Source: Candidatus Omnitrophota bacterium
GTDB lineage: Bacteria > Omnitrophota > Gorgyraeia > 2-01-FULL-45-10
Assembly: GCA_041650805.1 (NCBI GenBank)
Contig: JBAZKM010000012.1
Coordinates: 1 to 61,824 of the forward strand
DNA length: 61,824 nucleotides
Reading direction: 5' to 3'
The translations under genes were made by a program, and so were the position numbers. Below are positions 2,039 to 61,824 of the stretch, piece after piece. Under the pieces are notes generated by a model. That model was not told the origin of the DNA. It saw only the letters and a list, made by a program, of their open reading frames with translations, and did no database searches. How positions within the stretch are numbered: position 1 is the first letter of the stretch; each line of letters opens with the position of its first letter.

Positions 2039-2046
2039 AAATTGCC

Positions 2047-2175
2047 TCAACCCTGTTGTGCGGCAAGGTCATGCGGATGGAACTCCAGTACCCCGTATCC
2101 CGCCGAAATTGATGATAAGCTTATCTCCGCCATCTCATCGAGGCCGTTTTCGTCTATATCTTGAGCGGCTATAGA
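2047..2175 (-). pseudogene. Decayed relic of one extra 43-aa tail repeat immediately after the stop codon of the large GH9 gene
   Basis: In frame after TAA: SIAAQDIDENGLDEM...GYGV...HDL, matching the repeat (SP-E-SIATGDIDGNGKDDM); LIINFG appears in a shifted frame. Confidence 0.6.
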
Positions 2176-9783: not shown

Positions 9784-9794
9784 CTTCATCCTTT

Positions 9795-12700
9795 TTAATT
9801 TGGGCTCAGGTCGTTTATCTTTGCCCAATTGCCGTTGCCGTATCTGACCCATGTGCCGTGCTGCGTGCCGAAGTCGATGACCAGGTCGTCTTTGCCGTCT
9901 CCGTCAAGGTCCCCGGCGGCCATCAAGTCGGGGCTTACGCCGCTCACCAGGTCCCACGTGCCGTCGTAGTGCCTGGCCCATATGCCGTAAGAGGCGCCGA
10001 AGTCGATCACCATATCATCCTTGCCGTTACCGTCAATGTCTCCCGTGGCAATAGATTCCGGGCTTGCATCGCTCACCAGGTCCCATGTCCCGTCGTAGTG
10101 CCTGGCCCATATGCCGTAAGAGGCGCCGAAGTCGATCACCACGTCGTCTATATAGTCACCGTCCATATCTGCCGCGACAATACATTCGGGGTTTACGTTG
10201 CTTATCATCTCCCATGTACCATCACCGTGTCTTATCCATATGCCGTAGGCATCGCCGAAGTCGATAGCTACATCGTCAAGGTCATCGGTATCGAACCCGC
10301 CTGTGATGATAATTTCGGAATTTACACCGGTGAGCTGTTCCCAGGAAGCATTGTTCCTGTATATCCATATACCGTACGGGGAGCCGAAGTCGATGATCAG
10401 GTCATCTATGCCGTTCCCGTCTGTGTCTGCCCCGGCCATCGTATTCGGACTTAACCCGGCGAGCTGTGTCCATGTACCGTCATTGTACCTTATCCATAAG
10501 CCGTATTGCGACCCGAAGTTTATTACTATGTCGTCCAGAGGATCGAGGACGGCGGTGATCATCCGCGGCCCGGCAGCGGAGGTGCCGGGATCCAGTAACA
10601 TCGCGAAGAGCGTGCTCTGTCCGGCCTGGACGCCTATGTCGAATTCATTGGTGTTGACAAAGCTGTGTATATCGGCATACCTTCGCATAAGCGGGTGGTC
10701 ACCGAATTGCGGGTAGAACATATACTCTCCGAAGTCATAATATGCGTTGCCGGGCAGATACCCCACCGGACCATATACGGGTATCCCCGGAAGAAGCCCC
10801 TGCCCGTCCATGAGCAATGCCAGGCTGTCAGAGTGTAAAGGCTCCCGCGGGTGACGCGTACCGAGTCCCGTGATCCAGGCCGTTCCGTACGGGTTTGCGC
10901 CAAGTACGTAGTCAGCCGATAAACTGATGGCATTGATATATCTCTGCCTCTCTTCGGCGCTGAGCGCCCGGCGTGGCTCGGCCATCAGCCGGGAATATAT
11001 TGAGCTCAGGTGAGCGCCGGCGCTTGTGCCGGCCCCCCAGTCAGGGTTTGCGGATGTGTAGCGGCCGTTCCTGTGGGCATGGTTGCTGTCTACCCTGAAC
11101 AATTCGGCAGCGGCGTGGCTATCGACCTGGTCAAGCACGTGCCCGGCGATGACGGAGTCAGCCCCGGGGGCCATAACGTAGCTCAGCATTTGATCAGCGG
11201 TAAATTGCTGGCCGGCCTCAGAGTAGGAACCGGGCCACGGGAAAAATTCGACCACCTCCACCCACCCTGTATGCCAGGTATCCCACGCGTCCCACACGGC
11301 CCTCACCATATCCCTATATCTTGTCTCACCGGTCAGGGCGAAGAGCTCCCCCGCCGCGAATATCAGAGGGTTCCCGCAACGGGGCTCCAGCGGCGCGCCA
11401 TAGAGCGAATTGGTCGTCTCGTCGTCCATGAGCGCGAAATCATAAGCGGCAATGGCGCGGGCCCTCAATTCAGCCGATCTCCCGGCATCGAAAGGAGCGA
11501 CGATCCGGGCCGCCAGGGCGAACATCCCCGCAACGCGCGCGGAATGTTTCCTGTCCTTGGAGTATGTCCAGTACGGGTCATTATTCTCGTCCGCATACTC
11601 GATCGGAGGATGTCTGTACGATTCCACACCCAAGCGTATGCCGCCGTCATTGCGTCGTTTTGCCTCCGGCTCAGGGTTGAAACCGTTATATTCGAAATCC
11701 TGCAACTCTTCCCATGCCTTCAGGCTGTAGAGCGCTTCATCCAGTATGTCAGGGATCCCGTTACCGCTCTCCGGTATATTCAATTGACTATCGGTAAATC
11801 TTTCCGGGGACAATTCATAGGTCCGTAAGAGGGGGAGAGGTATAAGCCAGTGGAATAATCTTATATCGAAATCTCCGGCATCATGGTGGCCGCCCCTCAG
11901 GGTCCTCGTTACGGTTGCAGGAGTGTCTTCGGCGAACATGCTCAACGGATCGCTCTGCTCGGCATCATAAACGACCGGATGGTCCTGCGGCCTGGGGCCG
12001 AAACCGGTGAACGGTTCTTTCATCTCCCTTCCCCAGCGGTTGTATGTCATGCCTCTTATGGTTGTGAGGAACGCCTTAAAGACAGCGGCTTCGCTCACTT
12101 TTGTGGGCCATGAGACGCCTACGCCCGGTATCCTTATACGGTAGACCGCGTCCTCATTATGCGGCAGTGAACTCAGGTCTATCTCTTTTACCTGTCCGCC
12201 CGAGTCCGTGTCCGATTCCTGCCTCAGGGCCAGCGCGGGATTGAGCCCCGGCAACGCCGCCCTGTTTGAGATGGGATCGGCCGGTTCAGTCAGTATCTCA
12301 ACGGTCGAAGGGAAGGAGTCCAGAGAGAGGGCTCCGCCGTCACCCAGCCACCACGAGACATAAGCGTACCTTTCCGTAGCGCGCGGAGAATAACCTACCT
12401 GGTTGATCTGTATTACCGGTGTCTCGAGATACCGGTCGCTGAACGGCAGATAAAAGCCCAGGTCCTTCGGGCCTGTAATGCGCAGGAGATCGCGGCTTCC
12501 CACTTCCTGGTCCAGGACGAGGTATATGATATGGTCCACATCAAGGTAACACTCATCGCGCCAGTTATCCAGATAAAGCTGGGCGACCGGTATGGAGTTC
12601 CTGTATATGGCGCTTACCCCTATCGATGTTCCGTTGGCTCGCGTCACCGTCCAGGGCCCGGCCTGCCACTCAGGGCCTTCATAACCTATGATCTCATCGA

Positions 12701-14264
12701 CTCCCTGGTCATACCAGTCATTATCCGGCGAGAATGAATGGACGTGTTTATTTTCCAGGGTGAGCATGATTATATTCGGCGCGGCGAGATGTACCTCCCT
12801 GAGCGGAGTGTCCAGTGAGGCGCGCGGGCCGCCGTCTGTGCGCACATGAAGGTTCTTTACGGCAACCACGCCGCTGTCCGATCTCTGTTCTATCCGTATG
12901 AATACGTCTGTGGCGGCCGATACGCCTGTTATGGTATAGGTGTCCGTTTCGGGGCTCAGCGAAGCCACTTCTATACTGCCCGGGAGGGGGCCGTCTTCGG
13001 TATCGCCCGGCTCCGGTCCTATGTATATGCTTGTGCCGGTTATCTCGGCGCCCAGGCCCCACGAAATAGCGATCTTGCTTGAGGAGCTGTTCACGCTGGC
13101 CGGCAATACGAATGTGGCCCCGTACGGCAGACCCTCTGCCTTCAGGGCCACCGTTTTCCTGGTAGCGTTTATATCGTCCGATGAAATGACGAGAATGCTA
13201 TCCGCCGTCCCTTCAGTTACCGGCGTGAAAGTTATAGGGATCTTACGGCTTTCGTTCGGCGGTATCGTCACGCTAGCGGGAGCGCTGAATACGCTGTATG
13301 CCGCGGAGAGGTCCAGGTGGAGGTCCTGGTTTCCGCCGTTAAAGGCCTCGATATTCCAGTGGATACTTTGTCCTATCGGGATCTTGCCGAAGCAGACTGA
13401 GTCGTCTGAAAGTTCGAAAATGGACCCCATGCTCTTTCCGTATAGAGGTATGTGCTTCTGGTAATCGCCGAATACGTTGGTGCCTTGAAGTACAAGCGCC
13501 GCCTCTTTTTCGCCCACAGTCGCGGGTAAGAATTTGACGCATATATCTGTGCTTCCTCCCGGGGCCACCGTGAAAGGCACCGATTGTGTCGTGGAGAAGG
13601 CGCCGCTGCCGGTGCCTTCAAATCCTACGGTATTGATGACCATCTCCGATTCTCTATAATTTCTGAGCGTATATGTATTTTCCAGGGCGTTATTTATCTG
13701 TACGGCGCCGAAATCGACGCCTTTTTGGACCGCCCATATCTTGTCTATAAATATTGTTATGCCGTCATTCGGTGATATAAAATGAAGTTGTTCGATATCG
13801 TCAAGGCGGTATTCCGATTTCTTCATAAGGTCTATGGGGATCCGTACGAGACGGTATGCGGTATCGAGCGGACCGCCCTCGATATACGGGTCTATGCTTA
13901 CCACATTGCTCATATTGGGCCAACCGTATACAGAAAGGCCGAATGTCTTACCCTCCTGGTCGCACTTTGCGTAAAAACATACTTCATCATACGCGGATAT
14001 GTTCGCTCCATTAGACGGAAGGCCGCTCAGTATCAGGGCGGGTACCTGGCCCCACTTCGCGTTGGGGCTTCCCACCAGGCAATTTTCTCCCTCATATGGA
14101 TCCATGGGGAGGATGTCTCCCCAATCGACCCTGGCGTCCGCCTCCCCGTCCCATATGACGTATGTCCACTCTTTGGTGCCCGCGACGTCGGCAGAAGCTG
14201 TTTGGCAATAGAAGATCAAGGCCAGAAGCAGTATTGCGTTTTTTTTGTATATCCTGTTATTCAT
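9795..14264 (-). CDS. Secreted multidomain GH9 glycoside hydrolase: CBM-like, two choice-of-anchor-D-like Ig domains, CelD_N-like Ig, GH9 catalytic, repeat tail
   Basis: INQVGY; GGHHDAGDFD; PDILDEALY; LGANPYGTAWITGLG; PREPLH; TNEF. Start at ATG 14264 (GGAGG 6 nt upstream); signal peptide ending TASA|DVAG. Confidence 0.9.
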   Translation of the reverse strand: MNNRIYKKNAILLLALIFYCQTASADVAGTKEWTYVIWDGEADARVDWGDILPMDPYEGENCLVGSPNAKWGQVPALILSGLPSNGANISAYDEVCFYAKCDQEGKTFGLSVYGWPNMSNVVSIDPYIEGGPLDTAYRLVRIPIDLMKKSEYRLDDIEQLHFISPNDGITIFIDKIWAVQKGVDFGAVQINNALENTYTLRNYRESEMVINTVGFEGTGSGAFSTTQSVPFTVAPGGSTDICVKFLPATVGEKEAALVLQGTNVFGDYQKHIPLYGKSMGSIFELSDDSVCFGKIPIGQSIHWNIEAFNGGNQDLHLDLSAAYSVFSAPASVTIPPNESRKIPITFTPVTEGTADSILVISSDDINATRKTVALKAEGLPYGATFVLPASVNSSSSKIAISWGLGAEITGTSIYIGPEPGDTEDGPLPGSIEVASLSPETDTYTITGVSAATDVFIRIEQRSDSGVVAVKNLHVRTDGGPRASLDTPLREVHLAAPNIIMLTLENKHVHSFSPDNDWYDQGVDEIIGYEGPEWQAGPWTVTRANGTSIGVSAIYRNSIPVAQLYLDNWRDECYLDVDHIIYLVLDQEVGSRDLLRITGPKDLGFYLPFSDRYLETPVIQINQVGYSPRATERYAYVSWWLGDGGALSLDSFPSTVEILTEPADPISNRAALPGLNPALALRQESDTDSGGQVKEIDLSSLPHNEDAVYRIRIPGVGVSWPTKVSEAAVFKAFLTTIRGMTYNRWGREMKEPFTGFGPRPQDHPVVYDAEQSDPLSMFAEDTPATVTRTLRGGHHDAGDFDIRLFHWLIPLPLLRTYELSPERFTDSQLNIPESGNGIPDILDEALYSLKAWEELQDFEYNGFNPEPEAKRRNDGGIRLGVESYRHPPIEYADENNDPYWTYSKDRKHSARVAGMFALAARIVAPFDAGRSAELRARAIAAYDFALMDDETTNSLYGAPLEPRCGNPLIFAAGELFALTGETRYRDMVRAVWDAWDTWHTGWVEVVEFFPWPGSYSEAGQQFTADQMLSYVMAPGADSVIAGHVLDQVDSHAAAELFRVDSNHAHRNGRYTSANPDWGAGTSAGAHLSSIYSRLMAEPRRALSAEERQRYINAISLSADYVLGANPYGTAWITGLGTRHPREPLHSDSLALLMDGQGLLPGIPVYGPVGYLPGNAYYDFGEYMFYPQFGDHPLMRRYADIHSFVNTNEFDIGVQAGQSTLFAMLLDPGTSAAGPRMITAVLDPLDDIVINFGSQYGLWIRYNDGTWTQLAGLSPNTMAGADTDGNGIDDLIIDFGSPYGIWIYRNNASWEQLTGVNSEIIITGGFDTDDLDDVAIDFGDAYGIWIRHGDGTWEMISNVNPECIVAADMDGDYIDDVVIDFGASYGIWARHYDGTWDLVSDASPESIATGDIDGNGKDDMVIDFGASYGIWARHYDGTWDLVSGVSPDLMAAGDLDGDGKDDLVIDFGTQHGTWVRYGNGNWAKINDLSPN
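9798..10535 (-). repeat. Six 43-aa DFG repeats (C-terminal tail)
   Basis: VINFGSQYGLW, LIIDFGSPYGIW, VAIDFGDAYGIW, VVIDFGASYGIW, MVIDFGASYGIW, LVIDFGTQHGTW units. Confidence 0.9.
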
Positions 14265-14298
14265 TTGGCGCCTCCGTAATGTCATGTTCCATTTTCCG

Positions 14299-17200
14299 TT
14301 ACGTGCTCAGGTCGTGTATCTTCTCCCACGTGCCGTCCTGATGCTTCGCCCATATACCGTACTCCGATCCGAAGTCGATGACTATATCTCCGAGGTTATC
14401 GCCGTCCAGGTCTCCCGTCACGATAGACCCCGGGTCCACATCGCTCACACTGGTCCATAGGCCGTTATCACCGAGTATCCATATGCCGTAATCAGGCCCG
14501 AAATCGATCACTATATCGTCCTTGCCGTTACCGTCAATGTCGCCTAAGGCCATAGATTCGGGGGTGGCGGAGCTGAGTAATGCCCAGGTGCCAGTGCCGT
14601 ACCTGGCCCATATACCGTACTCGGTGCCGAAGTCGATAACTATATCTACGAGGTTATCGCCGTCGAGGTCTCCCGTCACGATAGACCCGGGGTCTACATC
14701 GCTCACCCTGGTCCATACCCCGCTGTCGCCGAGTATCCATATGCCGTAATCAGGCCCGAAATCGATCACTATATCGTCCTTGCCGTTACCGTCAATGTCG
14801 CCTGAGGCCATAGATTCGGGGGTGGCGGAGCTGAGTAATGCCCAGGTGCCAGTGCCGTACCTGGCCCATATACCGTACTCGGTGCCGAAATCTATCACTA
14901 TATCGCCGAGGTTATCGCCATCCAGGTCTCCCGTCACGATAGACCCGGGGTCTACATCGCTCACCCTGGTCCATAGGCCGCTATCGCCGAGTATCCATAT
15001 GCCGTAATCAGGCCCGAAGTCGATCACTATATCGTCCTTGCCGTTACCGTCAATGTCGCCTGAGGCCATAGATTCGGGGGTGGCGGAGCTGAGTAATGCC
15101 CAGGTGCCAGTGCCGTACCTGGCCCATATACCGTAATCGGTGCCGAAATCTATCACTATATCGCCGAGGTTGTCGCCGTCGAGGTTCGCGATTAGGATGG
15201 AGGGGAAGGCACTTTTAATATATGCGTATTCATAGGCGCCTATGTCCCAGATGGCTTCACCGTCTCCGTCCCCGTCTGCAGGTCTTACAGTCCCTTCGAT
15301 GTCAAGCGACTCTATCATCGGGGATAGGTCGATACCGTTGTCGATGGCAGGGGAACCGGCAAGCGGCCTGAATTCCCCATCGAGAAGAGGGTCCCCGTTG
15401 ATGCCGTTAACATCCGCCCCTCGGGATTGCCACTCCGCGAACGAAGGACAATAGTTACCGGCATCCTTAACCGGCATATCAAGGGTCGAACTATATATAT
15501 TGTTGTCTATACTGGAATAATCGAGCACGCCGTCCCCGAACCACGCCGCCGCATATCCGGCGGTGTTGATGAAGATATTGTTCTTTACCACTACATCCGG
15601 CGTATCGGGATGGAAGAGATGCTGTGATTTGCTCTTGACCACGTTATTGAATGCTATAAGCTTAAGGTCGTTCTCGCCTTCGGGTATGCTGTCACCGCTT
15701 CCGCGATATATGCCCATTACGGTGGAAGTCGAATTCGGAAGGTATATTATATTGTTGTGGATGTTATAGGTGCCGTGGCAAGAGGTGCAGTATAATCCCT
15801 GGGAGTTATACTCCTTAGGGGTGTCCTGGTGCAGGCGGTTATATCGCACCGTGGTGTTTGTCTCGTTCGTCATCTGTATACAGTCGCAGTGTTCCAGCGG
15901 GTCAAGGTTATTGATGTCGATAAGGTTATATTCGTATATATTGCCGGTGTTAGAGTTCGTCTGGATGCCGTCGGTCTGGTCAGGGATATGGTCGCGGGGC
16001 GTGGTTATCGTATTGCGGCTGACGGTGACATTCCCGCTGTTCGCCACGACTATGCCCATGCCTCCGCGTCCTTTCGTCTCGATGGTCATATTGATTATCA
16101 TTGAGTTGAAAGAATGGTCGATTCTTATGCCGTACCTGCAGTCACTATTCTCTATCCCTATGTCCCTTATGATGATGTAGTCGTTATTCGTTAACTCATC
16201 CCCGCTGCCCGGTTCCCGCCACGACTGTATTACCGAGTAGTCGCAGAGATCTATCGAACTATATGCGATCTGCGGATCTGACGGTGCATATAAGTATATG
16301 GTGTCGTTATGCCAATCCCAGTACCAGTCATACTCCTGTATAAGGGCGGCTATCGAGAACTTCCTGGCGCCTCTGGTGCCGTCTATGATCAATTTATAAG
16401 GATCTTTAATGCCCTGATTAGCCGTATACCAGATAGTCGCGTTATAGTTCGTCCAGCCGCCTGCAAGAACGGCCGCCTTACTTTGGAAGAGCGGTTTTTC
16501 GCCGCTGCCGTAAGCGCCGAAGGTGACATACGCGGTTTCGTCGCCCCCGCTGGTTATGTCTAACGATTCCCGCCACACCTCTCCCCGTTTGAACAATATG
16601 CTGTCCCCCGGCACGAAGGAAGCAGAATTAACTTTAGCGATCGTCTTCCATGGCGTCTCTTCCGAGAGGCCGTCGTTGGCATCGTCGCCGGAAGTCGCGT
16701 CGACATAATAAGTCCTGGCCGGTGCCGTGATTACGTCGATCGATACTGTAACAGGGGCGGAGTCGGCCAGGCCGTCATTTGTCTTGAAGGTGAACGAGTC
16801 GTCCCCCGTATAACCGGTATCAGGCGTATATGTTACATTCATCCCGGTCCCGGACAATGTCCCGTGGAGGGGACCGCTTATGATCGTGTAGGTTAAGTTA
16901 TCTCCGTCAGCATCGGTCGCGCCTAAAGTTATTGCCGTAGGCGTATTCTTAAAAACCGAAATGGTCTGGGGGTAGGCAACAGGAGAGCGGTTGACAGGTA
17001 TCACCTTTATCGCTACGGTGGCATTATTCGAATTCGCCGTCCCGTCGTTGACGCGGAAGGTGAACGAGTCGTCGCCCGCGTATCCGGCATCCGATGTATA
17101 TGACATATCGGGCGCGGTCCCGGCGAGGGCGCCGTGCGACGGCTGTGACAACACCGCGTACGTGACAGGATTACCGTCCGGGTCGAATCCGACGAGCCTG

Positions 17201-20200
17201 ATCGCTGTAGCGCATCCGGACTCTGCCGTAAGGGTCTGGTTGTTCGCTATGGGCGCTGTCTGTACGGCCGTTACTGTGATAGAGACGGTCGCTAAATTGG
17301 AGTCGGCTTCGAGGTCGTTCACCTTGAATGTGAACGAATCCGGACCGTTGTAATTGGTGAACGGCGTATAGGTCACGTTAGGCGCGGTCCCGGTGATCCA
17401 TCCGCGAAGCGGTTTTGTTACTATGATATAGTCGAACCTATCGCCGTCAGCGTCGGTAGCGTTGAGCGTGATCGATTTTGCCGTATTCTCCGCGGTAGTG
17501 ACCGACTGGGCGTTCGCCCCCGGCGCCGTATTTACGGCCGACGGGGCGACCTTTATCGTCACCGTTGCGTTATTGCTGGTAACGGACCCGTTGGATACTT
17601 TGAACTGGAAAGAGTCGCGTCCGGTATATCCGGCAGCGGGGATATATTTAAGAACGATAGGGGGAGTCGACGATATCCACTCGATAGTGCCGTTCGTCGC
17701 ATAGGGATATATTGAACAATAGAGGGCCGATTCGCCGTCGTTATCGGTTATGTTGAGCGGGATCGTGGCCGAACCGTTCCTGATCACCCGCACAAACTGG
17801 CTATAGACCACAGGTGCATCGTTGACCGAGGTCACATTGATAGTCACCATGGCTATATTAGATTCGAGCTTGCCGTCCGTCGCCTTAAACGTGAAGTTGT
17901 CGGCCCCCGTATAGTTGGAGGCCGGTGTATATGTGATCTTCGATGATGGCAGGCCGGTCACCGTGCCGTGTACGGGGGTCGAAGCCAGCATGAACGATAA
18001 CGTTTCGTTATCGGCATCCGCGGCGCCGAGCGTGATCGCCTTTGCCGTATCTTCGGTTACGGATACGGTCTGGTTCGTTGCCGCCGGGGCGTGGTTGGCC
18101 GTCACATTGATATATCCTGTCCTGGTATCGGTGGCCTGGCCGTAGCTATTGGATGCGGTCAGCGCGACTGTATAGTTGCCGACCGCCGTGTACGTGTGAG
18201 ACGGGTCGCGTATCGTCTCATTAATGCCGTCCCCGAATGTCCAGGACCACGCCGTCGGTGTATTGGCGGACCGGTCGGTGAATTGCACTGTGAGAGGCGC
18301 GGTGCCCCTGGTCACATTGGCGGCGAAGTCGGCGACCGGCGGTGCATCGCATCCTTCTACCGTGATAGTTTTTGTCAGGGAACCGGTATCCCCAAATTCA
18401 TCCATGACGGTCAACGTCGCGTTGTAACTGCCGGAAATGGTCGGGTAGTTGTGATACGAGACCATGCCCTCACCGGCCGTATCGTCCCCGTAGACCCAGT
18501 TATACTTAATCATCTTCCGTTCTGTCGTCGCCTCCGTGGCCGATGCGTCAAATGATACGGTGAGCGGCTGTTCCCCGGATCCCGGCACCGCCGAAAATGC
18601 CGCCTGCGGCAGCCGGTCCGCGAAAAGCTGCGCTATCTCTTCAAGCGAAAGCACTCTGCTCCACGCCTTGATATCGTCGATAGATCCTATGTACGGCGCC
18701 GTGTCCGTGTAGACATTCTTTCCGAGCGTCCATTTGACGGTACCTCCGATGCCGGTCGATATGGCAGCGCTGCCGCGTTCTATCCCGTCTACATAGAGCC
18801 GAACCGCCTTGCCGTCATAGGTAAAGGCGATGTGATGCCAGGTGTCATCGGCGACCGTCGTTAATGTCTGGGCAATGAATGTAGGAGTCCCTGAATATGC
18901 GGAGCGATATAAGAGGAGTAATTTGTTTTCGTTGAACGCTAAGCCGTTTCCGATGACGAGCGCGCACCCCACGGTACTGCTCGATCCGCCGGTTATGTTG
19001 TCGGTCGAAAATATGGTGCTGGGCGCGTCGGACGGAGGCGCCTTTATCCAGGCGGCAAACGTAAAGGAGCTGCTCCTCATATCGTTGATCATTGCGCCAA
19101 GGTCTATGGTCTGGCTGCCGTCGAATGTATAGGTCCCCCCAGCGTTCTCCCGCCGGTCGGTATCACGGACAAGCGTTCCGGAAGCGGTCCCATGGTTTGT
19201 ATATAAAGAATCGTCCTGTGTGCCGTCAGACGGATCATCATCGCATTTCATATTCAATATCTGATCAGGATTGGCGACCTCCTTATAGATCTTCATTACC
19301 TCATCGTCTGCGAGCGCGATATTGAACATCTTGAAGTTGTCCACGGTGATGTTGGTGCCCCACCCGTTCGTGAAGCCGACGACATACCATATGTCTGCGG
19401 GATCAAATTGATAATCGACCGTATGGGACCCCTTGAGCCGGCCGTCAACGAAGAGCCGGCCGACTACGCCGTCCGAAACATAAGCCACATGGTGCCATGT
19501 ATTATCACATATTACCGTATTGGTGTAAGCCTCATATCGTTGGTCTCCGCCGTCGTAGGCGACGAGACGGCTCGAGTTCGGGGTGGTCCGGTCGCTGTCA
19601 TAGAGCGCGAACTTCGTGGCGCCATCCGCACCGAGGACCCTTATGATGGCCCCGGACGAGTCGCCGCTTAATGCCGGCTTCCTCATCCAGCACGACACCG
19701 TAAATACCTGTCCTATATCATCGCGTATGGCGTCAAGCTTTATTCCCTGCGAACCGGCGAAGTTGTATGCCTTACCGTCCACTCCGGTGTAGTCGATGAC
19801 AGGATTATTCGACTGCATGCCGTGGTTGAGATACGGCGAACTGTCGGTGACGCCGTTCGTCATGGGTATACTATCCTTGTAATCATCCTCAAATCGCAGA
19901 TCAAGGATGAGCGATCCGGCCGTATCTATGTCGCAGGCCGCCGTGTCGGTATTGCCGCCGGAGTCCGTGACAGATAGGGTTACGTGATAAGTGCCCTTAT
20001 TCGTAAAGGTATGGACATTCCTTGGGCCGGCCCCCGTAGTCCCATCGCCGAAATCCCAGGCATATGATATTATGTTCCCGGACCCCGGGGTCGATCCCGA
20101 CCCGTCAAAGAGTATCGTAAGCGGCGCCTCACCGCCGGGAGCGCTCGTCTCTATCACGGCAAAGGGGAGGACGGCCGACTTTACCGTTATCGAAACGGTC

Positions 20201-23166
20201 GCCGTATTCGAATCGAACGTGCCGTCAAGGGCCTTGAATACAAAAGAGTCGGATCCGGCGTACCCGGCCTCAGGCGTATAAACGAGTGAACCGTCCGTTA
20301 TTGCCGACAGGGTGCCGTGGACCGGCCCCTGTACTATCGAATATATGAGGAAGTCATTATCGCCATCCGTTGCCGATAATGATACGGGCAGGGGGATCTC
20401 CGCCCGCGTATTGTGCTGCCCGTTAAGCGCTACAGGCGGGTGGTCATTTACGGGATCTACGGTGACCGTCACGGTGGCAGGAGAAGATGTGGAGATGCCG
20501 TCATTTGCGGTATAGGTGAACGTGTCTATACCGGAGAAATCCTTGCACGGTATATATCTCACCGTCTCTCCCGTTACTTCCAGGGCGCCGTGGGAAGGAT
20601 ATTTTGTTATGGCAAATGTGACCGGGTCATCCTCGGCGTCATCGGCATCGAGGGTCATGTCTATCGGGGTATCTTCATCGGTTGAGACGTTAATATCCTG
20701 CACTGCAGGCGCCACGTTCTTGGAACTGACGCGCTTTACGTTTATGCTGACGTTAGCGACATTTGAATCGGCCGTGCCGTTATTGACGACGAAGGTTATG
20801 GTGTCAGGTCCGAAATAACCGGTGTCGGGCAGGTAAGTGACCGCCGGCGCCGTTCCGGAGAGTGACCCATGCGATGGAGATGATATCACCCGGTATGTGA
20901 GCGGCGCTGCGGGGGTTAATATATCCTCGCCTTTTAAGGCGATGGCCAGGGACGTCTCCTGATTGGTCGAGACGACCTGATCGTATGCAACCGGGTTCGA
21001 ACATGCCACGGTGACCTTTGTGATGACGCGTGTAACCGTGTTCTTGAAAGAGAAGTAATCTGCGCCCGCATATCCCGCCTTAGGCGTATATGTGTATGCG
21101 CCGGTCGAAGCGGTGAAGGCCAGCGTGCCGTTCACCGGATACTCAAGGATGGCGTATCCCGCGCCGACGGGTGTCCCTGTAACCGGTGTGTCCTGTGCGC
21201 CCGCCAGCGTCAGATAATTGTATGTCCATATGGTAGCGGATTCTATGACCTCGACCTTATTGTCGGAGTTTGTATCATTATATGTGACCTCTGCCGCTGT
21301 CAGAGCCCTCCCGCCCGGGTCAGAGGTCTTCACCAGGTGGCCTTCCGCGGTATAGTCAGTGTTCACGGCGCCGGCGGTCCTTCTCCAGCCGGCAAGCTGT
21401 CCCGTCAGAGCGTACTTAAAGAGGTCCCTCGTCCATATCTTTTTCTTCGAAACGAAAGAGTAAACGGTGTTCGTATTATAATCTATCTGCAGAATGCGTC
21501 CCGCCTGATCATATGTCCGCACCTCGTGATCGAGAGTGAACGATGTAACGAAACCGGGGGCGGAATAATAGATGCCGTTATTGGCAAATACGCCTATCGA
21601 TACAAGATTAGAATTTGTGTAGAAAGACGCGATCTCCGGATTGGGGTTGTAGAAGAGAAATTTGGTCTTTGGATGGTAGTCGATCTCTATCTCGGCGATC
21701 GAATGCGCTTCATTGAGGTAATTTATCCTCACATGCGCAGGGTCTCCGCGTATCACCGCCCAGTGATATGTGAGCGGCTTATTATTGATATCGTAGCTCT
21801 CCTCGGCGCTTACCACCATGCGCTTGGTATACGCGCGGTCGCGCCACACGCGGCATATCGACGCCGGCGTATCGAAATATTTCTCCGTGGTCCTCTTGTC
21901 TATATCTTCAAATATGGCGTCGCCGGGGAGATATGCCTTATAGGTCTCGTCTATGACCTTAAGCTGGACCATAGGAGGTATGTCGGATAGGTTTATGCCG
22001 TTAGCCATCGTCACCATATCGAGCGAATTGGCGACATCATGGAATTCGTTTACATGGGCCTTGTAGCTGAGATACTCCCCGTCATCCTTGACGCGCGTCC
22101 GCCTGTATATCATCTGTACCGTGGGCATGAGGAGCGACTCAAGGCGTTCTGCGTGGTAAGGGTTGGCCCTTCGCTCGATCAACTTTGCCTTGACCTCCGG
22201 CTTGAACGCCGCGAAGGTATATATGAACTTCTGGAGCTCATCCGTTTCGGAACCGGACGCGCCTTTAGAGCCGCTTGCGTAGGCGGACATGGCATAAGAG
22301 AGGTCCGTTCCCTCGCCGCCGCCGCCCTGCCCCACCATCGGATGCCAGTAGTGGTTATTCGATATGTAGGCTCTATACGCGTCCTCCGGTCCGGTATTCC
22401 CGCTCCAGTAGTCAGACCTTGTGGGGTTCATATATTTATAATGGACTACGTTCAAATTGCCGTCAGGAGTGACATAGACATGCGACGCGTTCCCGACGAG
22501 CGTCTTGGTTTCCACTACAACTCCATCGCTGCCGGTCATGAGGTCCGCCTGCGGATAGTATCCCATGCTTAGGCCCGCATGGAAGCCGTCGCAGTTATCG
22601 TACCAGTCGCCTATATTGCCGGCGACCTCGCCAAGGGTCCATTTCGTCTTGAGGAAGGTTGCCGATGCGTCCGTGAGCGTGGCTATGGCAGGCTTCACTA
22701 TGGTCAGCTTCATCGTTGTAGACGTCGATAGGTTCGAGGTGTTCTTGACCGTAAATGTTATTTCGTGCAGGCCGTACGTAAATACCTGCGATGACCCGAC
22801 GGTCATCGTGAGGGCAGGGGTCACTCCCCACGAAAATTTGCCGGTAACGGTATCGAGCGAAGCCCCGGAGGGGAGGGAGCTTGAGACGTTGACCGTGACG
22901 CCGTCTTTCTTCCAGCCGGTGATCGAATAGGTGAGCGTCTGAGCAGGTGTATTCGGGTCGGTGGCGGCGACGGTGACCGAGAACGTATATGCGCTATTAT
23001 TGTAAGGTTTTGGTGTATGTGTCTTATCCGGTATAGCCGTTACATTAGGAGGCAGTGCAGCTTCGACATTAAGAGGGAAGACCATCAGGATAAAAGCGAA
23101 TACAGCCGTCGTTAGGGCGGCGCGCACGGTCATCCGGGGCTTTAGGATTAAAGGTAGCTTTTTCAT
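14299..23166 (-). CDS. Giant secreted adhesin-like protein: Ig, ~480-aa uncharacterised domain, about 9 Big_9/tandem-95 repeats, 3 PKD, 2 LamG-like domains, beta-helix, repeat tail
   Basis: YTP...Y.G.DSFTF repeats; PKD motifs (YAWDFGDG, WSWTFGDG); LamG-like WHHVAY...LFVDG and WHHIAFTYDG..VRLYVDG; YYVDATSGDDANDG..PWKTI beta-helix start. The ORF-track TTG 23265 lies inside the predicted -35 box, so ATG 23166 (MKKLP...NVEAA|LPP) is preferred. Confidence 0.88.
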   Translation of the reverse strand: MKKLPLILKPRMTVRAALTTAVFAFILMVFPLNVEAALPPNVTAIPDKTHTPKPYNNSAYTFSVTVAATDPNTPAQTLTYSITGWKKDGVTVNVSSSLPSGASLDTVTGKFSWGVTPALTMTVGSSQVFTYGLHEITFTVKNTSNLSTSTTMKLTIVKPAIATLTDASATFLKTKWTLGEVAGNIGDWYDNCDGFHAGLSMGYYPQADLMTGSDGVVVETKTLVGNASHVYVTPDGNLNVVHYKYMNPTRSDYWSGNTGPEDAYRAYISNNHYWHPMVGQGGGGEGTDLSYAMSAYASGSKGASGSETDELQKFIYTFAAFKPEVKAKLIERRANPYHAERLESLLMPTVQMIYRRTRVKDDGEYLSYKAHVNEFHDVANSLDMVTMANGINLSDIPPMVQLKVIDETYKAYLPGDAIFEDIDKRTTEKYFDTPASICRVWRDRAYTKRMVVSAEESYDINNKPLTYHWAVIRGDPAHVRINYLNEAHSIAEIEIDYHPKTKFLFYNPNPEIASFYTNSNLVSIGVFANNGIYYSAPGFVTSFTLDHEVRTYDQAGRILQIDYNTNTVYSFVSKKKIWTRDLFKYALTGQLAGWRRTAGAVNTDYTAEGHLVKTSDPGGRALTAAEVTYNDTNSDNKVEVIESATIWTYNYLTLAGAQDTPVTGTPVGAGYAILEYPVNGTLAFTASTGAYTYTPKAGYAGADYFSFKNTVTRVITKVTVACSNPVAYDQVVSTNQETSLAIALKGEDILTPAAPLTYRVISSPSHGSLSGTAPAVTYLPDTGYFGPDTITFVVNNGTADSNVANVSINVKRVSSKNVAPAVQDINVSTDEDTPIDMTLDADDAEDDPVTFAITKYPSHGALEVTGETVRYIPCKDFSGIDTFTYTANDGISTSSPATVTVTVDPVNDHPPVALNGQHNTRAEIPLPVSLSATDGDNDFLIYSIVQGPVHGTLSAITDGSLVYTPEAGYAGSDSFVFKALDGTFDSNTATVSITVKSAVLPFAVIETSAPGGEAPLTILFDGSGSTPGSGNIISYAWDFGDGTTGAGPRNVHTFTNKGTYHVTLSVTDSGGNTDTAACDIDTAGSLILDLRFEDDYKDSIPMTNGVTDSSPYLNHGMQSNNPVIDYTGVDGKAYNFAGSQGIKLDAIRDDIGQVFTVSCWMRKPALSGDSSGAIIRVLGADGATKFALYDSDRTTPNSSRLVAYDGGDQRYEAYTNTVICDNTWHHVAYVSDGVVGRLFVDGRLKGSHTVDYQFDPADIWYVVGFTNGWGTNITVDNFKMFNIALADDEVMKIYKEVANPDQILNMKCDDDPSDGTQDDSLYTNHGTASGTLVRDTDRRENAGGTYTFDGSQTIDLGAMINDMRSSSFTFAAWIKAPPSDAPSTIFSTDNITGGSSSTVGCALVIGNGLAFNENKLLLLYRSAYSGTPTFIAQTLTTVADDTWHHIAFTYDGKAVRLYVDGIERGSAAISTGIGGTVKWTLGKNVYTDTAPYIGSIDDIKAWSRVLSLEEIAQLFADRLPQAAFSAVPGSGEQPLTVSFDASATEATTERKMIKYNWVYGDDTAGEGMVSYHNYPTISGSYNATLTVMDEFGDTGSLTKTITVEGCDAPPVADFAANVTRGTAPLTVQFTDRSANTPTAWSWTFGDGINETIRDPSHTYTAVGNYTVALTASNSYGQATDTRTGYINVTANHAPAATNQTVSVTEDTAKAITLGAADADNETLSFMLASTPVHGTVTGLPSSKITYTPASNYTGADNFTFKATDGKLESNIAMVTINVTSVNDAPVVYSQFVRVIRNGSATIPLNITDNDGESALYCSIYPYATNGTIEWISSTPPIVLKYIPAAGYTGRDSFQFKVSNGSVTSNNATVTIKVAPSAVNTAPGANAQSVTTAENTAKSITLNATDADGDRFDYIIVTKPLRGWITGTAPNVTYTPFTNYNGPDSFTFKVNDLEADSNLATVSITVTAVQTAPIANNQTLTAESGCATAIRLVGFDPDGNPVTYAVLSQPSHGALAGTAPDMSYTSDAGYAGDDSFTFRVNDGTANSNNATVAIKVIPVNRSPVAYPQTISVFKNTPTAITLGATDADGDNLTYTIISGPLHGTLSGTGMNVTYTPDTGYTGDDSFTFKTNDGLADSAPVTVSIDVITAPARTYYVDATSGDDANDGLSEETPWKTIAKVNSASFVPGDSILFKRGEVWRESLDITSGGDETAYVTFGAYGSGEKPLFQSKAAVLAGGWTNYNATIWYTANQGIKDPYKLIIDGTRGARKFSIAALIQEYDWYWDWHNDTIYLYAPSDPQIAYSSIDLCDYSVIQSWREPGSGDELTNNDYIIIRDIGIENSDCRYGIRIDHSFNSMIINMTIETKGRGGMGIVVANSGNVTVSRNTITTPRDHIPDQTDGIQTNSNTGNIYEYNLIDINNLDPLEHCDCIQMTNETNTTVRYNRLHQDTPKEYNSQGLYCTSCHGTYNIHNNIIYLPNSTSTVMGIYRGSGDSIPEGENDLKLIAFNNVVKSKSQHLFHPDTPDVVVKNNIFINTAGYAAAWFGDGVLDYSSIDNNIYSSTLDMPVKDAGNYCPSFAEWQSRGADVNGINGDPLLDGEFRPLAGSPAIDNGIDLSPMIESLDIEGTVRPADGDGDGEAIWDIGAYEYAYIKSAFPSILIANLDGDNLGDIVIDFGTDYGIWARYGTGTWALLSSATPESMASGDIDGNGKDDIVIDFGPDYGIWILGDSGLWTRVSDVDPGSIVTGDLDGDNLGDIVIDFGTEYGIWARYGTGTWALLSSATPESMASGDIDGNGKDDIVIDFGPDYGIWILGDSGVWTRVSDVDPGSIVTGDLDGDNLVDIVIDFGTEYGIWARYGTGTWALLSSATPESMALGDIDGNGKDDIVIDFGPDYGIWILGDNGLWTSVSDVDPGSIVTGDLDGDNLGDIVIDFGSEYGIWAKHQDGTWEKIHDLST
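14302..15197 (-). repeat. Seven 43-aa DFG repeats, alternating A/B with 258-bp period
   Basis: Shadow ORFs 14522 and 14780 are offset by 258 nt; the units are near-identical to those at 1-670. Confidence 0.92.
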
Positions 23167-54788: not shown

Positions 54789-55106
54789 ATGGCGGCGATA
54801 AAAGGCGTGATGAGGGAAGAGCTTGCAAACTCTCTCCAGATGAAAAAAGACTACGAGAGAGAATTGGCAAAATTGCCCAAGGGGAGCCTTATAAAAAAGA
54901 AAATCAAGGGGCATGAATATTATTACCTCTTAGTGCGTGAAGCCGGCAAGGTAAAGATGAAATATAAAGGCAAGGTATCTGATGATGTCATACAGAAATA
55001 CAAGGAGGTTAAGGAGTACAGGGCAAAATATAGAAAGTTATTATCTCAAGTAAAGAAGCAGATCAGATTCTTAAAAGGAGCTTTACGTGGAAAAGAAGCA
55101 GTATGA
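54789..55106 (+). CDS. Small basic protein, candidate DNA-binding antitoxin/autorepressor
   Basis: 105 aa, Lys/Arg-rich, helix-LPKGSLIKKKIKGHEYYYL..R..GKV..KYKG-helix; overlaps the next gene by 20 nt. Confidence 0.75.
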   Translation: MAAIKGVMREELANSLQMKKDYERELAKLPKGSLIKKKIKGHEYYYLLVREAGKVKMKYKGKVSDDVIQKYKEVKEYRAKYRKLLSQVKKQIRFLKGALRGKEAV

Positions 55107-55770
55107 ATTATGCCTTGCAGTTTTGCGTCGCTTGCGTGATGCCAGCGTGCTGGATGGCATGATAATGATTGGCAGCTGGTGTATCCCTTTCTATGAGGGG
55201 TATTTTGCAGAAGTTAAATATCGTAAAACAATCAGAACAAGGGATGTGGATTTTTTAATCCCGTCTCCCAGTAGTTTCAAAAAAGATGTTAATTTGCCGG
55301 AATTGCTTAAAGATCTCGGCTTTGTAACCGGATATAAAGGATCTAAGGGTTACATAAAGTTAGAGCATCCGGAACTGATGGTGGAGTTTTTAGTGCCGGA
55401 AAGAGGTAAGGGAACGGATGCTCCAATTCAAATACCGCGTTTGGGTATAAATGCAACTGCCTTACGGTATCTTCATTTCTTGTCTGATAATACTATAAAG
55501 GTTAAGGTTGACGATTTCTATCTTACCTTGCCGCATCCCGCCAATTTTGCACTTCATAAGTTGATTATTTTTCAACGCAGACTCAAAGAAGAGAAAGCAG
55601 ATAAAGATAGAAGCGCCGCTATAGAGATATTAAACGCTTTGGCTTCTAAAGGAGATGCTGATTTAGTCAAAGAGGTTTTTGATTCAATGCCGCATAAATG
55701 GCAGATGAAAATTATGAATGCCTTGGCGGAAGCCATGGCAATAGATATACAGAAGATGCTGCAAGTATAA
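55087..55770 (+). CDS. Nucleotidyltransferase-fold protein (GSU2403/NTP_transf_8-like), candidate toxin
   Basis: IGSWC..FY, RTRDVDF (acidic DxD), VEFL.P, P.P..FALHKL..RR..K..KD; AAAGGAG before GTG. Confidence 0.75.
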   Translation: MEKKQYELCLAVLRRLRDASVLDGMIMIGSWCIPFYEGYFAEVKYRKTIRTRDVDFLIPSPSSFKKDVNLPELLKDLGFVTGYKGSKGYIKLEHPELMVEFLVPERGKGTDAPIQIPRLGINATALRYLHFLSDNTIKVKVDDFYLTLPHPANFALHKLIIFQRRLKEEKADKDRSAAIEILNALASKGDADLVKEVFDSMPHKWQMKIMNALAEAMAIDIQKMLQV

Positions 55771-56929: not shown

Positions 56930-56977
56930 ATGACTAAGCCTAGTGTGTACATAAAAACCTTCGGTTGTCAGATATGA
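56930..56977 (+). pseudogene. Relic 5' fragment of a miaB-like gene (MTKPSVYIKTFGCQI*)
   Basis: 15 codons matching the MiaB N-terminal YIRTFGCQM motif but with different synonymous codons from the intact copy. Confidence 0.8.
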
Positions 56978-57004
56978 AAAATATGGTGAAGGTAACGCAG
57001 ACGT

Positions 57005-57255
57005 CTAAACGGCCCAAAATTCTCTCGCCACTGACAACCAAAAGTTCAAGACATGAAAAGAATAGTAAAGTCAGTGCCGGCTTCTAAGCGGCGGTCCAAT
57101 TTCTCGTCGGTGTCAACTCCGAATCCTAAACGGCCCAAAATTCTCTCGCCACTAACGGAGCCGAATTTTAAAACGTGTCCAAAAAATCTGTCGCTCCTTC
57201 GGGAGCTCCACATTTTTTGGACTAAAATTCGGCATGACAACCAAAAGTTCAGGCC

Positions 57256-57267
<12 letters not shown>
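57005..57267 (+). repeat. Interrupted direct duplication that includes the miaB start codon
   Basis: 28-bp block ctaaacggcccaaaattctctcgccact at 57005 and 57126; 32-bp block gacaaccaaaagttca(a/g)g(a/c)catgaaaagaata at 57033 and 57236; an 82-bp insert separates the blocks in the second copy. Confidence 0.9.
57160..57233. repeat. Nested palindromic element (REP/MITE-like)
   Basis: gccgaatttta/taaaattcggc, gtccaaaaaat/attttttggac and gctcc-TTCG-ggagc form three stacked perfect stems. Confidence 0.85.
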
Positions 57268-58583
<1,316 letters not shown>

Positions 58584-60301: not shown

Positions 60302-61540
60302 ATGGAACGCGCGATAACGATAACCGTTGATCTTGGAGGGCGTGACGGATGGACCGCGGAAGAGCGCTCCGCCGAACTGAAGGAGCTTGCCTCGTCCGCC
60401 GGGGCCAGGGTCATAAGGGAAGAGATAGTCCGCCGGCACGAGCCGTCGCCCTCGCATTTCATAGGCACCGGCAAGGCGGAGGAGATCGCGGACAGGTGCG
60501 CGGATGAAGGCATAGATCTGGTGATCTTCAATAATGACCTTACGGGAAGCCAGCAGAAGAACCTTGAAGAGGCCATCGGGGTAAAGACGATAGACCGTAC
60601 ACAGCTCATCCTGGACATATTCGCCCGGCGCGCCCATTCTAACGAAGGGAAGATCCAGGTCGAGCTGGCCCAGCTTCTATACCTGCTCCCGCGGCTTACA
60701 GGGAAGGGCATATACCTGTCGCGCCTGGGAGGCGGGATAGGGACGAGAGGTCCCGGCGAACAGAAGCTCGAGATCGACAGGCGGAGGATATGGACGAGGA
60801 TAACTAAACTTAAGAAGGACCTCGAGGACCTGAGCAGGCGGCGCGCCATGATGCGTAAGAATAGGGGCCGTTTTTCGATCCTGACCATCGCTATAATAGG
60901 ATATACCAATGTCGGCAAGTCGACGCTCCTCAATGCCCTCACCGATTCGGATGTCATCGTGCAGGACAAGCTCTTCTCTACGCTCGACCCTACGGTGCGC
61001 AAGTTCGTCCTGCCTAACAGACAGAGGGTCCTCTTTGTAGACACGGTAGGTTTTCTCGACCGCCTTCCTCATCACCTCATAGAGGCATTCAAGGCGACGC
61101 TGGAGGAGGTCATAGAGGCGGACATACTTCTCCATATCATAGATATAAGCCACCCGAAGGCCGCCGAACAGGCCAGCGCCGTATATAAGGTGCTGGAAGA
61201 GATCGGCGCCCACGATAAGCCGGTCATGACGGTCCTCAACAAGATCGACAAGGTAGAGAACGAAGTCGTCATAGAGAAGGCGCGTTCTTATTTTAACGAT
61301 CCTGTCGTCGCCTCGGCACTGCAGAGGAAAGGGTTCGATGAGCTTGTGGGGCGGATAATGGTCCATGCGCGCGCATTGACGGCCCCCGTCAAAGTGACAA
61401 TACCCGCCTCCGACGCCAGAAGATTGAACCTAATCTACGAGAACGGCCTCGTCACCCGCAAGGAGTATAAGGGCGACAGTGTCTACATCGAGGCCGAACT
61501 CCCTCTCCGTGTCAAAGAGATGCTCGAAAGGAAGGATTAA
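60302..61540 (+). CDS. hflX: Ribosome-splitting GTPase HflX
   Basis: IGTGKAEE, DRTQLILDIFA.RA, GIGTRGPGE.KLE.DRR, GYTNVGKSTL, DTVGF, AFKATLEE, NKID. Confidence 0.97.
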   Translation: MERAITITVDLGGRDGWTAEERSAELKELASSAGARVIREEIVRRHEPSPSHFIGTGKAEEIADRCADEGIDLVIFNNDLTGSQQKNLEEAIGVKTIDRTQLILDIFARRAHSNEGKIQVELAQLLYLLPRLTGKGIYLSRLGGGIGTRGPGEQKLEIDRRRIWTRITKLKKDLEDLSRRRAMMRKNRGRFSILTIAIIGYTNVGKSTLLNALTDSDVIVQDKLFSTLDPTVRKFVLPNRQRVLFVDTVGFLDRLPHHLIEAFKATLEEVIEADILLHIIDISHPKAAEQASAVYKVLEEIGAHDKPVMTVLNKIDKVENEVVIEKARSYFNDPVVASALQRKGFDELVGRIMVHARALTAPVKVTIPASDARRLNLIYENGLVTRKEYKGDSVYIEAELPLRVKEMLERKD

Positions 61541-61559
61541 ATTTTTCGTCTCCACCCCT

Positions 61560-61820
61560 CAGGCGTTTACTTTTGTGCCCGCCTTCCGCTTGTCGCAAAT
61601 TTGGATTAGGCATCCAAATTTGCTGTCCCAAAATTTTGATGGCCGATGAACCTGGTTACAAGGAAAGCGATTGTCCAGTTTCATCGTCCGTTCTGTATCG
61701 CCCCAAGGTACCCCGAACAATCTGAAAGATTGTTCGGGACCAGTCCTGCTAAATTCTTTGAATTTAGCAGGGTCAAAATTTTGAAGAGTCGCTCCAGGCG
61801 GGCACGAAAAGTTCCGCCTG
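61560..61820. other. ~260-bp closed multi-branched palindromic element (candidate structured RNA or MITE/REP-like element)
   Basis: Outer stem 61560-61584 with 61796-61820; perfect 12-bp hairpins at 61595-61623, 61712-61738 and 61745-61771; imperfect hairpin 61644-61686; inner stem from two caaaattttga copies. Confidence 0.7.
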
Positions 61821-61824
61821 CGCC

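Follow-up and report, generated by a model that had tools for sequence, protein, structure and literature searches.

The window, a 61,824-nt stretch of DNA that its HflX relatives place in Candidatus Omnitrophota (best HflX identity 73%), ends in one copy of a repeat family that is real, conserved, multi-copy, non-coding and constrained by its structure, and that is new to the databases searched; this conclusion is well supported. The copy is a hairpin-rich stretch 3' of hflX (60302-61540), and its nested structure fills the last 287 bases of the window. The architecture common to the family is a three-way junction, made up of a long closing stem (P1), a hairpin with the loop ATTAGGCAT (P2) and a CAAAATTTTG stem around a further hairpin (P3). 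The core of the unit measures ~205 nt, and units with expansions reach 260-290 nt. Omnitrophota are an uncultivated phylum, for which we found no described repeat family or non-coding RNA in Rfam, the full-text literature, or plasmid and phage collections.

Architecture, extent and folding of the element

The initial annotation of the window had described an outer stem enclosing a 12-bp hairpin and an inner stem, the latter with three more hairpins inside it, and all of these are present (Table 1). In P1, CAGGCG at 61560-61565 pairs with CGCCTG at 61815-61820, and ACTTTTGTGCCCGCCT at 61569-61584 pairs with AGGCGGGCACGAAAAGT at 61796-61812, leaving one bulged G. The two perfect 12-bp hairpins with 3-nt loops are unique within the window, which holds a single copy of the element in 62 kb; the first of them is also found in a twin copy at another locus (L138).

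The same annotation had taken the element for a closed unit of ~260 bp. The unit is larger: it starts at 61538, and the expected partner of its first bases lies past the window end. Nor is it closed, since an outer A/T-rich stem (P0) brackets the family and the window has only the 5' arm of this stem. The left boundary is fixed at 61538 by comparison with the twin copy; the repeat therefore supplies the stop codon of hflX, the TAA inside TAAATTTTTCG. The P0 5' arm pairs with a downstream CGAAAAATTT(A) in four copies (L100, L109, L125 and L127) and covaries in L127. No match beyond chance to the internal loop between P0 and P1 (61549-61559) was found in flanking DNA. The window copy is predicted to continue with a ~12-nt loop, CGAAAAATTTA, possibly a second repeat module (module B, described below), and then the CIRCE operator and hrcA. 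A search for this right flank through HrcA homologues reached other Omnitrophota of the same samples but not the organism of the window.

Table 1. Parts of the element in the window (coordinates of the 61,824-nt stretch), followed by related features on other contigs
Feature	Position	Strand	Remarks
P0 5' arm TAAATTTTTCG, left boundary	61538..61548	+	Twin (L138/L120) identical from this T on; flank upstream differs
Internal loop between P0 and P1, 5' strand	61549..61559	+	Variable among family members, identical in the twin
P1 5' strand: CAGGCG, TTT bulge, ACTTTTGTGCCCGCCT	61560..61584	+	RNA and DNA folds
Junction strand J12 TCCGCTTGTC	61585..61594	+	Conserved, mostly unpaired; mean pairwise identity 91%
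P2 hairpin: perfect 12-bp stem, loop TAGGC within conserved ATTAGGCAT	61595..61623	+	7/12 pairs changed on both sides
CTGT linker and inner stem 5' arm CAAAATTTTGA	61624..61639	+	Fold; invariance partly imposed by the search pattern
P3 hairpin: imperfect stem, conserved C/T mismatch, variable apex	61640..61689	+	12/20 pairs changed on both sides
Conserved single-stranded segment GTTCTGTATCGCC..AAGGTA	61690..61711	+	Segment identities 0.69 and 0.85
Two lineage-specific perfect 12-bp hairpins, 3-nt loops	61712..61771 (61712-61738, 61745-61771)	+	Expansion, absent from 15/18 aligned copies
Inner stem 3' arm TCAAAATTTTG	61773..61783	+	Fold
Junction strand J31 AAGAGTCGCTCC	61784..61795	+	Conserved; mean pairwise identity 85%
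P1 3' strand	61796..61820	+	Window ends 4 nt later; 3' loop and P0 3' arm missing
74-nt insertion in the twin	L138 160-235 = L120 10848-10925	minus (L138)	
Module B loci	L021 11736-11885; L111 3760-3876; L119 749-855; L109 3698-3801; L100 2560-2666; L127; L128		

The plus strand folds as RNA with a minimum free energy of -121.8 kcal/mol, against -73.1 ± 4.4 for dinucleotide shuffles (z = -11.0, 0/200). The minus-strand RNA fold gives z = -9.5, and a fold with DNA parameters gives z = -11.7. Comparison with shuffled controls had been proposed as a check on the element, and at z of about -11 under RNA or DNA parameters the folding energy is far beyond chance. The remark that the element does not resemble tRNA, tmRNA, RNase P, SRP or 6S RNA was likewise borne out: no Rfam 15 model, these families as well as HEARO and ribozymes included, matched the window at the gathering score, and ARAGORN found no tRNA or tmRNA in the element. 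Lowering the Rfam threshold to E = 10 over 61400-61824 yielded three noise matches only, and Rfam searches over 14 loci of the family recovered only two ordinary tRNAs, located elsewhere.

The element had no match in plasmid and phage collections or in IMG/VR. A scan of viral contigs with six patterns returned chance matches only, mostly AT-rich and with one recurrent phage coding sequence among them, and nothing relevant to the repeat family was found in the full-text literature. Exact look-ups of two open reading frames over the element returned nothing, and a protein search with the translated core recovered only an open reading frame of one family contig (L113). A small protein or type I toxin was rejected as an explanation, since neither frame nor start codon is conserved across copies, and no reading frame is open across them. 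A scan of the unit saw no sigma-70 promoter consensus and no intrinsic terminator consensus.

The initial annotation had also related the element to an insert upstream of miaB, on the strength of A/T-run stems and an 8-mer, GTCGCTCC, shared with position 57190. The 8-mer is indeed shared, yet chance alone would yield about two matches of this kind over both strands of 62 kb. The family HMM and covariance model give no match at the miaB insert, and its kinship with the element was rejected.

The miaB spacer (56930-57290) has features of its own. It contains a second, partial miaB 5' end (VYIKTFGCQM, ~56944-56975), a 42-nt direct repeat (56994/57115) and a long three-segment hairpin (57160-57235), and one arm, GACAACCAAAAGTTC, is complementary to the miaB codons for TFGCQ. 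A shorter homologous miaB insert occurs in another Omnitrophota genome (L021 6690-6900), where this arm and the coding arm differ compensatorily (GACATCCAAATGTC / GACATTTGGATGTC). The spacer resembles a conserved leader in which pairing extends across the start codon, and it is unrelated to the hflX element. Upstream of the miaB region, Pfam identifies an overlapping gene pair at 54789-55770 (on L001, the hflX contig), coding for a DUF6788 protein and an NTP_transf_8 nucleotidyltransferase, which may be a toxin-antitoxin-like module. The window further carries, at 1-15344 and 4500-21100, arrays of a 129-nt (43-codon) repeat in four blocks (~55-700, 2200-3100, 9800-10500 and 14300-15300) and other repeats with a period of ~270 nt; both presumably encode repeat domains of giant surface proteins.

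Copies of the family and compensatory change in their helices

A copy at the same hflX-hrcA position was found in an Omnitrophota MAG (L021, JAGOLR010000004.1) whose HflX is 66% identical to that of the window. Its hflX-hrcA spacer is 700 nt long, and the first part of it is homologous to the window element. The hairpins of the L021 and window copies differ compensatorily (for example, GCAAATTTGGAT/ATCCAAATTTGC versus GTAAATTTCCAT/ATGGAAATTTAC). The L021 copy has none of the two perfect 12-bp hairpins, and its core is intact while P0 and P1 are degraded. Two blocks that are invariant between these two copies were used as a pattern for a metagenome scan (ATTAGGCAT, 14-18 nt, CAAAATTTTGA), which recovered 30 loci, 17 with the full architecture and the others chance matches. 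All metagenome copies come from this one pattern, which fixes the P2 loop and one inner-stem arm, and they under-sample the diversity of the family. The search for homologues suggested in the initial annotation thus yielded about 17 further copies, with compensatory changes among them. Several samples hold 3-5 copies on separate contigs, and 18 copies were aligned.

The consensus begins with the P0 arm AAATTTTTCG, followed by a variable loop of 11-14 nt, the P1 5' strand (AGGCG-nTTAC-TTTT and a variable 8-9 nt) and the junction TCCGCTTGYC. Its middle consists of P2 with the loop ATTAGGCAT, CTGT, CAAAATTTTGAT, the P3 hairpin and GTTCTATATCGCC-ATAAGGWA, and its 3' part of ATCAAAATTTTG, TAACAGTCGCTYC, the P1 3' strand, a loop and the P0 3' arm CGAAAAATTT. 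The two perfect hairpins of the window copy are an expansion in the single-stranded segment after P3, and L108 and L111 are expanded differently at the same place. The expansion in L138 and L120 lies within the P2 loop. In L125, L126 and L127 the P3 hairpin is replaced, its apex having been swapped outright. A search for 'empty' hairpins consisting of P1 only found none.

Some short contigs may be chimeras of different copies, the candidates being L113 versus L112 and the P1 of L021. In L112/L121 versus L113, and at L021 11337-11544, the cores are identical and the P1 5' strand belongs to another subfamily than the 3' strand. Such a P1 of mixed subfamilies no longer pairs, which may reflect recombination between copies or chimeric metagenome joins.

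Covariation across homologues had been suggested as a further check, and compensatory changes are present under two structures. The RNAalifold consensus comprises 41 pairs, 24 of which are changed on both sides, with the pair kept, in at least one sequence. A structure of 73 pairs was also taken from the best-paired copy and scored over 1212 cells. Standard pairs occupy 84.9% of these cells, and 37 of the 73 pairs are changed on both sides (14 of 21 in P1; see Table 1 for P2 and P3). The observed values were reached by 0/500 shuffles, and sliding the 3' partners by 1-3 columns left 35-50% of cells paired. A 2-bp GC/GC contact between J12 and J31 is preserved by a double change in L021.

The degree of identity between copies differs among the parts of the unit: it is 85-91% in the junction strands, 73-75% in P3 and 53-63% in P1 and P2. 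The junction strands J12 and J31 lie outside the search pattern; the invariance of the P2 loop and of the CAAAATTTTG arms is partly an ascertainment artefact and was discounted as evidence. Because the junctions are conserved while P1, P2 and P3 vary and yet stay paired, the fold is maintained in its own right, beyond the sequence alone. The element works as a folded single strand, of either DNA or RNA.

A structured RNA would be expected to tolerate G·U pairs on the transcribed strand only, and this asymmetry is absent from the family. Folded one by one, the copies yield minimum free energy structures of near-equal energy for the two strands, and their G·U pairs total 43 on the plus strand against 41 on the minus strand. 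The earlier observation that the stems are mostly pure Watson-Crick and fold on either strand therefore holds family-wide. In the aligned stems, G·U occupies 19 and A·C 36 of the 1212 cells, so that G·U does not exceed A·C or the other mismatches in frequency. Neither G·U nor A·C occurs in P2, where 195 cells are Watson-Crick.

The conserved internal loop of P1 sets a 5' YTT against a 3' TC. In two subfamilies it has been zipped to perfect pairing, with opposite strands rewritten: the 3' strand, giving GTAACCGCC, in L119b and L112, and the 5' strand, giving GGCGGAA, in L101, L116, L117 and L128. Intrastrand template switching in quasi-palindromes closes such loops to perfect pairing, and would account for perfect, strand-symmetric helices without wobble intermediates. 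The insertion of 74 nt in the P2 loop of L138 and L120 is assembled from rearranged fragments of the element, with a direct duplication of ~13 nt, AAATTTGGATTAG, on its flanks. This make-up supports the template-switching account and suggests that the insertion arose by the same replication error, template switching in hairpin-rich DNA.

Loci, neighbours and phyletic range

Two contigs, L120 (JGI) and L138 (ENA ERZ27247363), carry a copy identical to that of the window from TAAATTTTTCG on, save for one substitution and the 74-nt insertion. Their upstream flank differs and holds a divergent MFS/spermidine-synthase gene. L138 belongs to the same assembly as L001, the contig with hflX, which places the element at two or more loci of one population. 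The same element at two or more loci of one assembly is what the initial annotation had predicted for a family. L138 and L001 break off at one and the same base within the first 12-bp hairpin, having ~134 bases in common in an assembly made with k = 141; the L138 contig thus also terminates inside the element. The near-identical twin at another locus explains why three assemblies break within the element (at 61567, 61737 and 61824).

Such breaks also raise the question of an assembly artefact, that is, a fold-back or a chimeric contig end, given that the window stops 4 nt past the closing stem, as do two other assemblies within the element itself. However, three independent assemblies agree exactly in sequence over whatever part each of them covers, contigs from many samples carry homologues away from their ends, and the element is no simple inverted duplication of the preceding sequence. 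We consider an artefact barely conceivable.

One 6.8-kb contig (L119) carries two copies in inverted orientation, at 346-608 (+) and 5342-5607 (-), which flank ~4.7 kb of lipid A/Kdo genes. The genes in this interval are a lipid A acyltransferase-ELM1 fusion, an lpxK-like gene and waaA. At the second copy, the element runs over the stop codon of a gene for a XerC/D-type recombinase.

The neighbours of the copies are unrelated housekeeping genes on either strand, namely ispE, transketolase, fmt, endonuclease III, cinA, dnaX, lipid A acyltransferase and waaA; genes for a XerC/D-type recombinase, OmpA-LysM, archease, CODH and a radical SAM protein occur as well. Beside the 15 copies with sequenced flanks there is no transposase, reverse transcriptase (RT), TnpB/IscB, nuclease or integrase with cassettes, and no RAYT (Y1 HUH) was seen among the neighbours examined. 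These flanks bear on the idea that the element is the RNA of a known system (retron msr/msd, IS110 bridge RNA, TnpB/IscB omega-RNA or DRT ncRNA) whose protein gene lies just past the window. The closing stem around hairpins does recall the retron a1/a2 architecture, and P1 and the loops, being variable, might in principle serve as guides. Yet no RT, recombinase, TnpB or IscB is adjacent to any of the 15 copies, and at the same spot in L021 the element is followed by CIRCE and hrcA. The variable segments are complementary to the flanks no more than expected by chance, and neither HEARO nor other Rfam models match. We regard this origin as very improbable; the flanks of the other copies effectively exclude the retron, bridge-RNA and omega-RNA readings along with the artefact. 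A guide function of the variable P1 and loops was itself rejected, the flanks being without a match: no counterpart of these segments beyond chance was found in flanking DNA.

P0 inverted repeats flank the element (module A) in about half of the copies. Both arms are seen in L100, L109, L125 and L127 and the 5' arm in the window, and P0 is absent or degraded in L116, L119a, L119b and L123. At seven or more loci, module A is followed after ~40-140 nt by a second structured repeat, module B (Table 1). It is composed of an outer stem, GTATTGA-CGGGGGTCTTAAA, a hairpin, TTACGAA, a hairpin and GTCCCCCG-GAGATAC, is bracketed by an A/T-rich inverted repeat of the same type (AAATTTTTYG ... CRAAAAATTT), and has no Rfam match. 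The window contains no other P0-bracketed module, its sole other AATTTTTYG lying inside a coding region.

If the P0 arms AAATTTTTCG / CGAAAAATTT, perhaps together with outer P1, were the terminal inverted repeats (TIRs) of a double-stranded MITE moved by a DDE transposase, the internal fold would be incidental. The bracketing of module A in about half of the copies would agree with this, as would the twin copies, the small size and the intergenic placement, and P0 around the unrelated module B is expected if several non-autonomous families share one transposase. However, the internal core is better conserved than the presumed TIRs, and its helices covary rather than decay. The four copies with absent or degraded P0 also speak against a MITE, as does the lack of a visible direct repeat outside P0 in the four complete copies, and searches of ~1.5 Mb with the family HMM and covariance model yielded no cognate IS. 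A MITE is therefore an unlikely explanation.

Nearly all relatives have a CIRCE operator and hrcA within ~100-250 nt after hflX; L021 is the exception. In L019-L030 and most others, hflX is directly followed by hrcA-grpE-dnaK-dnaJ, headed by this operator (TTAGCACTC-N9-GAGTGCTAA) and a TTGACA-type promoter, and the hflX-CIRCE-hrcA synteny is conserved across Omnitrophota. Another Omnitrophota lineage (L152/L153, 983-2317) has a gene for a 444-aa AAA_14/DUF4143 ATPase between hflX and hrcA, so that this spacer takes different insertions in different lineages. The element is absent from 79/80 other Omnitrophota hflX loci, including that of the closest relative by HflX identity, and no copy was found in L019, whose HflX is closer to the window's than that of L021. 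Searches with the family HMM and a calibrated covariance model detected no further copy, either in ~1.3 Mb taken from 80-plus hflX regions of other Omnitrophota or in the remainder of the window. As far as sampled, the family is confined to one lineage of Candidatus Omnitrophota.

A folded single strand of DNA or RNA

Between co-directional genes, the element is co-oriented with its neighbours in seven cases and opposed to them in two. In 6/9 co-oriented copies P1 starts 17-31 nt past the upstream stop codon, with P0 abutting or overlapping the stop. The upstream gene is divergent in 6/15 copies.

The 7:2 excess and the position against upstream stop codons are among the observations that a multi-copy structured ncRNA would explain. 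Most plausibly it would be a module of the 3' UTR or the intergenic region that acts in cis and is transcribed together with the upstream gene; alternatively, it would be a family of trans-acting RNA genes copied around the genome. A cis module could, for example, protect mRNA ends or be excised at the long P1 duplex by RNase III. Strong covariation, a conserved loop and conserved junctions fit such an RNA, and so do the variable or expanded hairpins at fixed positions, as in RNA expansion segments, and a core conserved across two genomes with HflX only 66% identical. On the other hand, the use of G·U is very low overall and without strand asymmetry, stable bacterial RNAs seldom contain perfect duplexes of 12-24 bp, and the P1 internal loop is dispensable, being zipped shut in two subfamilies. 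The divergent upstream genes, the lack of a promoter or terminator consensus inside the unit and the lack of an Rfam match also count against it. An ncRNA is the main rival of the reading that follows, and we consider it possible but somewhat doubtful.

The reading we prefer, and to which we would give about an even chance, is that of a dispersed non-coding, non-autonomous mobile repeat acting as folded single-stranded DNA. The unit would spread as DNA, and its folded single-stranded state would be recognised by an enzyme encoded elsewhere in the genome, much as HUH or tyrosine enzymes handle REP/REPIN elements, palindromic elements derived from IS200/IS605 and the attC sites of integrons. Intrastrand template switching in quasi-palindromes would keep the helices Watson-Crick on both strands, and the same process may have spawned the extra perfect hairpins of the window copy. 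Copies would survive where they are harmless, typically flush against the stop codon of the upstream gene. We prefer DNA because the Watson-Crick pairing is strand-symmetric, palindromes are perfected by rewriting of either strand, and twins occupy different loci. The occurrence of both orientations to neighbouring genes, the lack of transcription signals and the patchy phyletic distribution point the same way. The initial annotation had named a DNA-level mobile palindromic family and a new structured ncRNA as alternatives; its predictions for a family hold, and the balance leans to DNA.

Several observations nevertheless weigh against DNA. Conserved unpaired junctions with covarying helices are also a classic signature of functional RNA, and a 3'-UTR element transcribed with the upstream gene would likewise account for the co-orientation and the post-stop position. 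The copy flanks examined contain no transposase, HUH enzyme or recombinase with matching ends, and neither a target-site duplication nor a conserved flanking tetranucleotide was seen in the four copies with both P0 arms. The core of L021, being intact, hints that selection acts on the element where it lies and not on its mobility; this would not hold if the L021 contig were a chimera joining two copies.

Among known repeats, REP/BIME and REPIN-RAYT elements resemble the family in being non-coding, intergenic, multi-copy and palindromic and in often lying just after stop codons. Most copies of REP/REPIN-RAYT elements also have no adjacent enzyme gene, and they are thought to act as folded single-stranded DNA. 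However, REPs are single imperfect hairpins of 20-40 nt with a GTAG-type head and REPINs are simple doublets, whereas the Omnitrophota unit is a branched three-way junction of at least 205 nt (205-290) with conserved junction strands. No conserved tetranucleotide head was found at the unit boundaries. The copy density is low here (one in 62 kb), and a RAYT was not found among the neighbours examined.

The BOX repeats of Streptococcus pneumoniae and the RIME, ERIC, Correia and RUP families are alike in being modular, with pairing outer arms and a variable number of internal hairpin modules. They too are dispersed in intergenic regions with no known enzyme of their own; in the present family module A is often followed by B, and mosaics occur. 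They differ in host phylum and share no sequence similarity with the Omnitrophota unit, and to our knowledge covariation with conserved junctions has not been described for them.

The palindromic elements derived from IS200/IS605 (PATEs) and attC sites share with the family a structure conserved above sequence and a folded single strand as the working form. PATEs, however, have separate subterminal hairpins and insert next to a fixed tetra- or pentanucleotide, whereas the ends of the present element pair with each other (P0, P1) and the bases before its left boundary vary (T, T, T, A, G, G ...). The attC sites are distinguished by RYYYAAC/GTTRRRY boxes and by cassette arrays beside intI; P0 and P1 contain no such boxes, and the flanks are housekeeping genes rather than cassettes. 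HEARO and IscB omega-RNA are likewise structured units of ~200-300 nt with several copies per genome, and some HEARO copies stand alone without an ORF. They differ from the family in that the Rfam HEARO model does not match it, no IscB or TnpB lies beside the copies, and its G·U pairs have no strand bias.

More tentatively, the family may represent a new kind of mobile structured nucleic acid. This could be a three-way-junction RNA of ~210 nt that is copied around the genome, one possibility being a ribozyme-like or protein-recruiting scaffold. It could also be a single-stranded DNA substrate of an Omnitrophota-specific recombinase or HUH enzyme; modules A and B, each enclosed by AAATTTTTYG inverted repeats, would then represent two kinds of cargo carried by a single system.

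The family unites traits that are usually found apart: the dispersal of a selfish repeat, the covariation of a functional fold, and strict strand-symmetric Watson-Crick pairing. The element breaks metagenome assemblies of its lineage at predictable places and can create chimeric joins, so that a model of it helps the curation of MAGs. If it is RNA, it constitutes a new family of ~210 nt with unusually strong covariation. If it is folded DNA, it points to an unrecognised system of single-strand transposition or recombination, and offers a natural example of quasi-palindrome correction keeping helices perfect.
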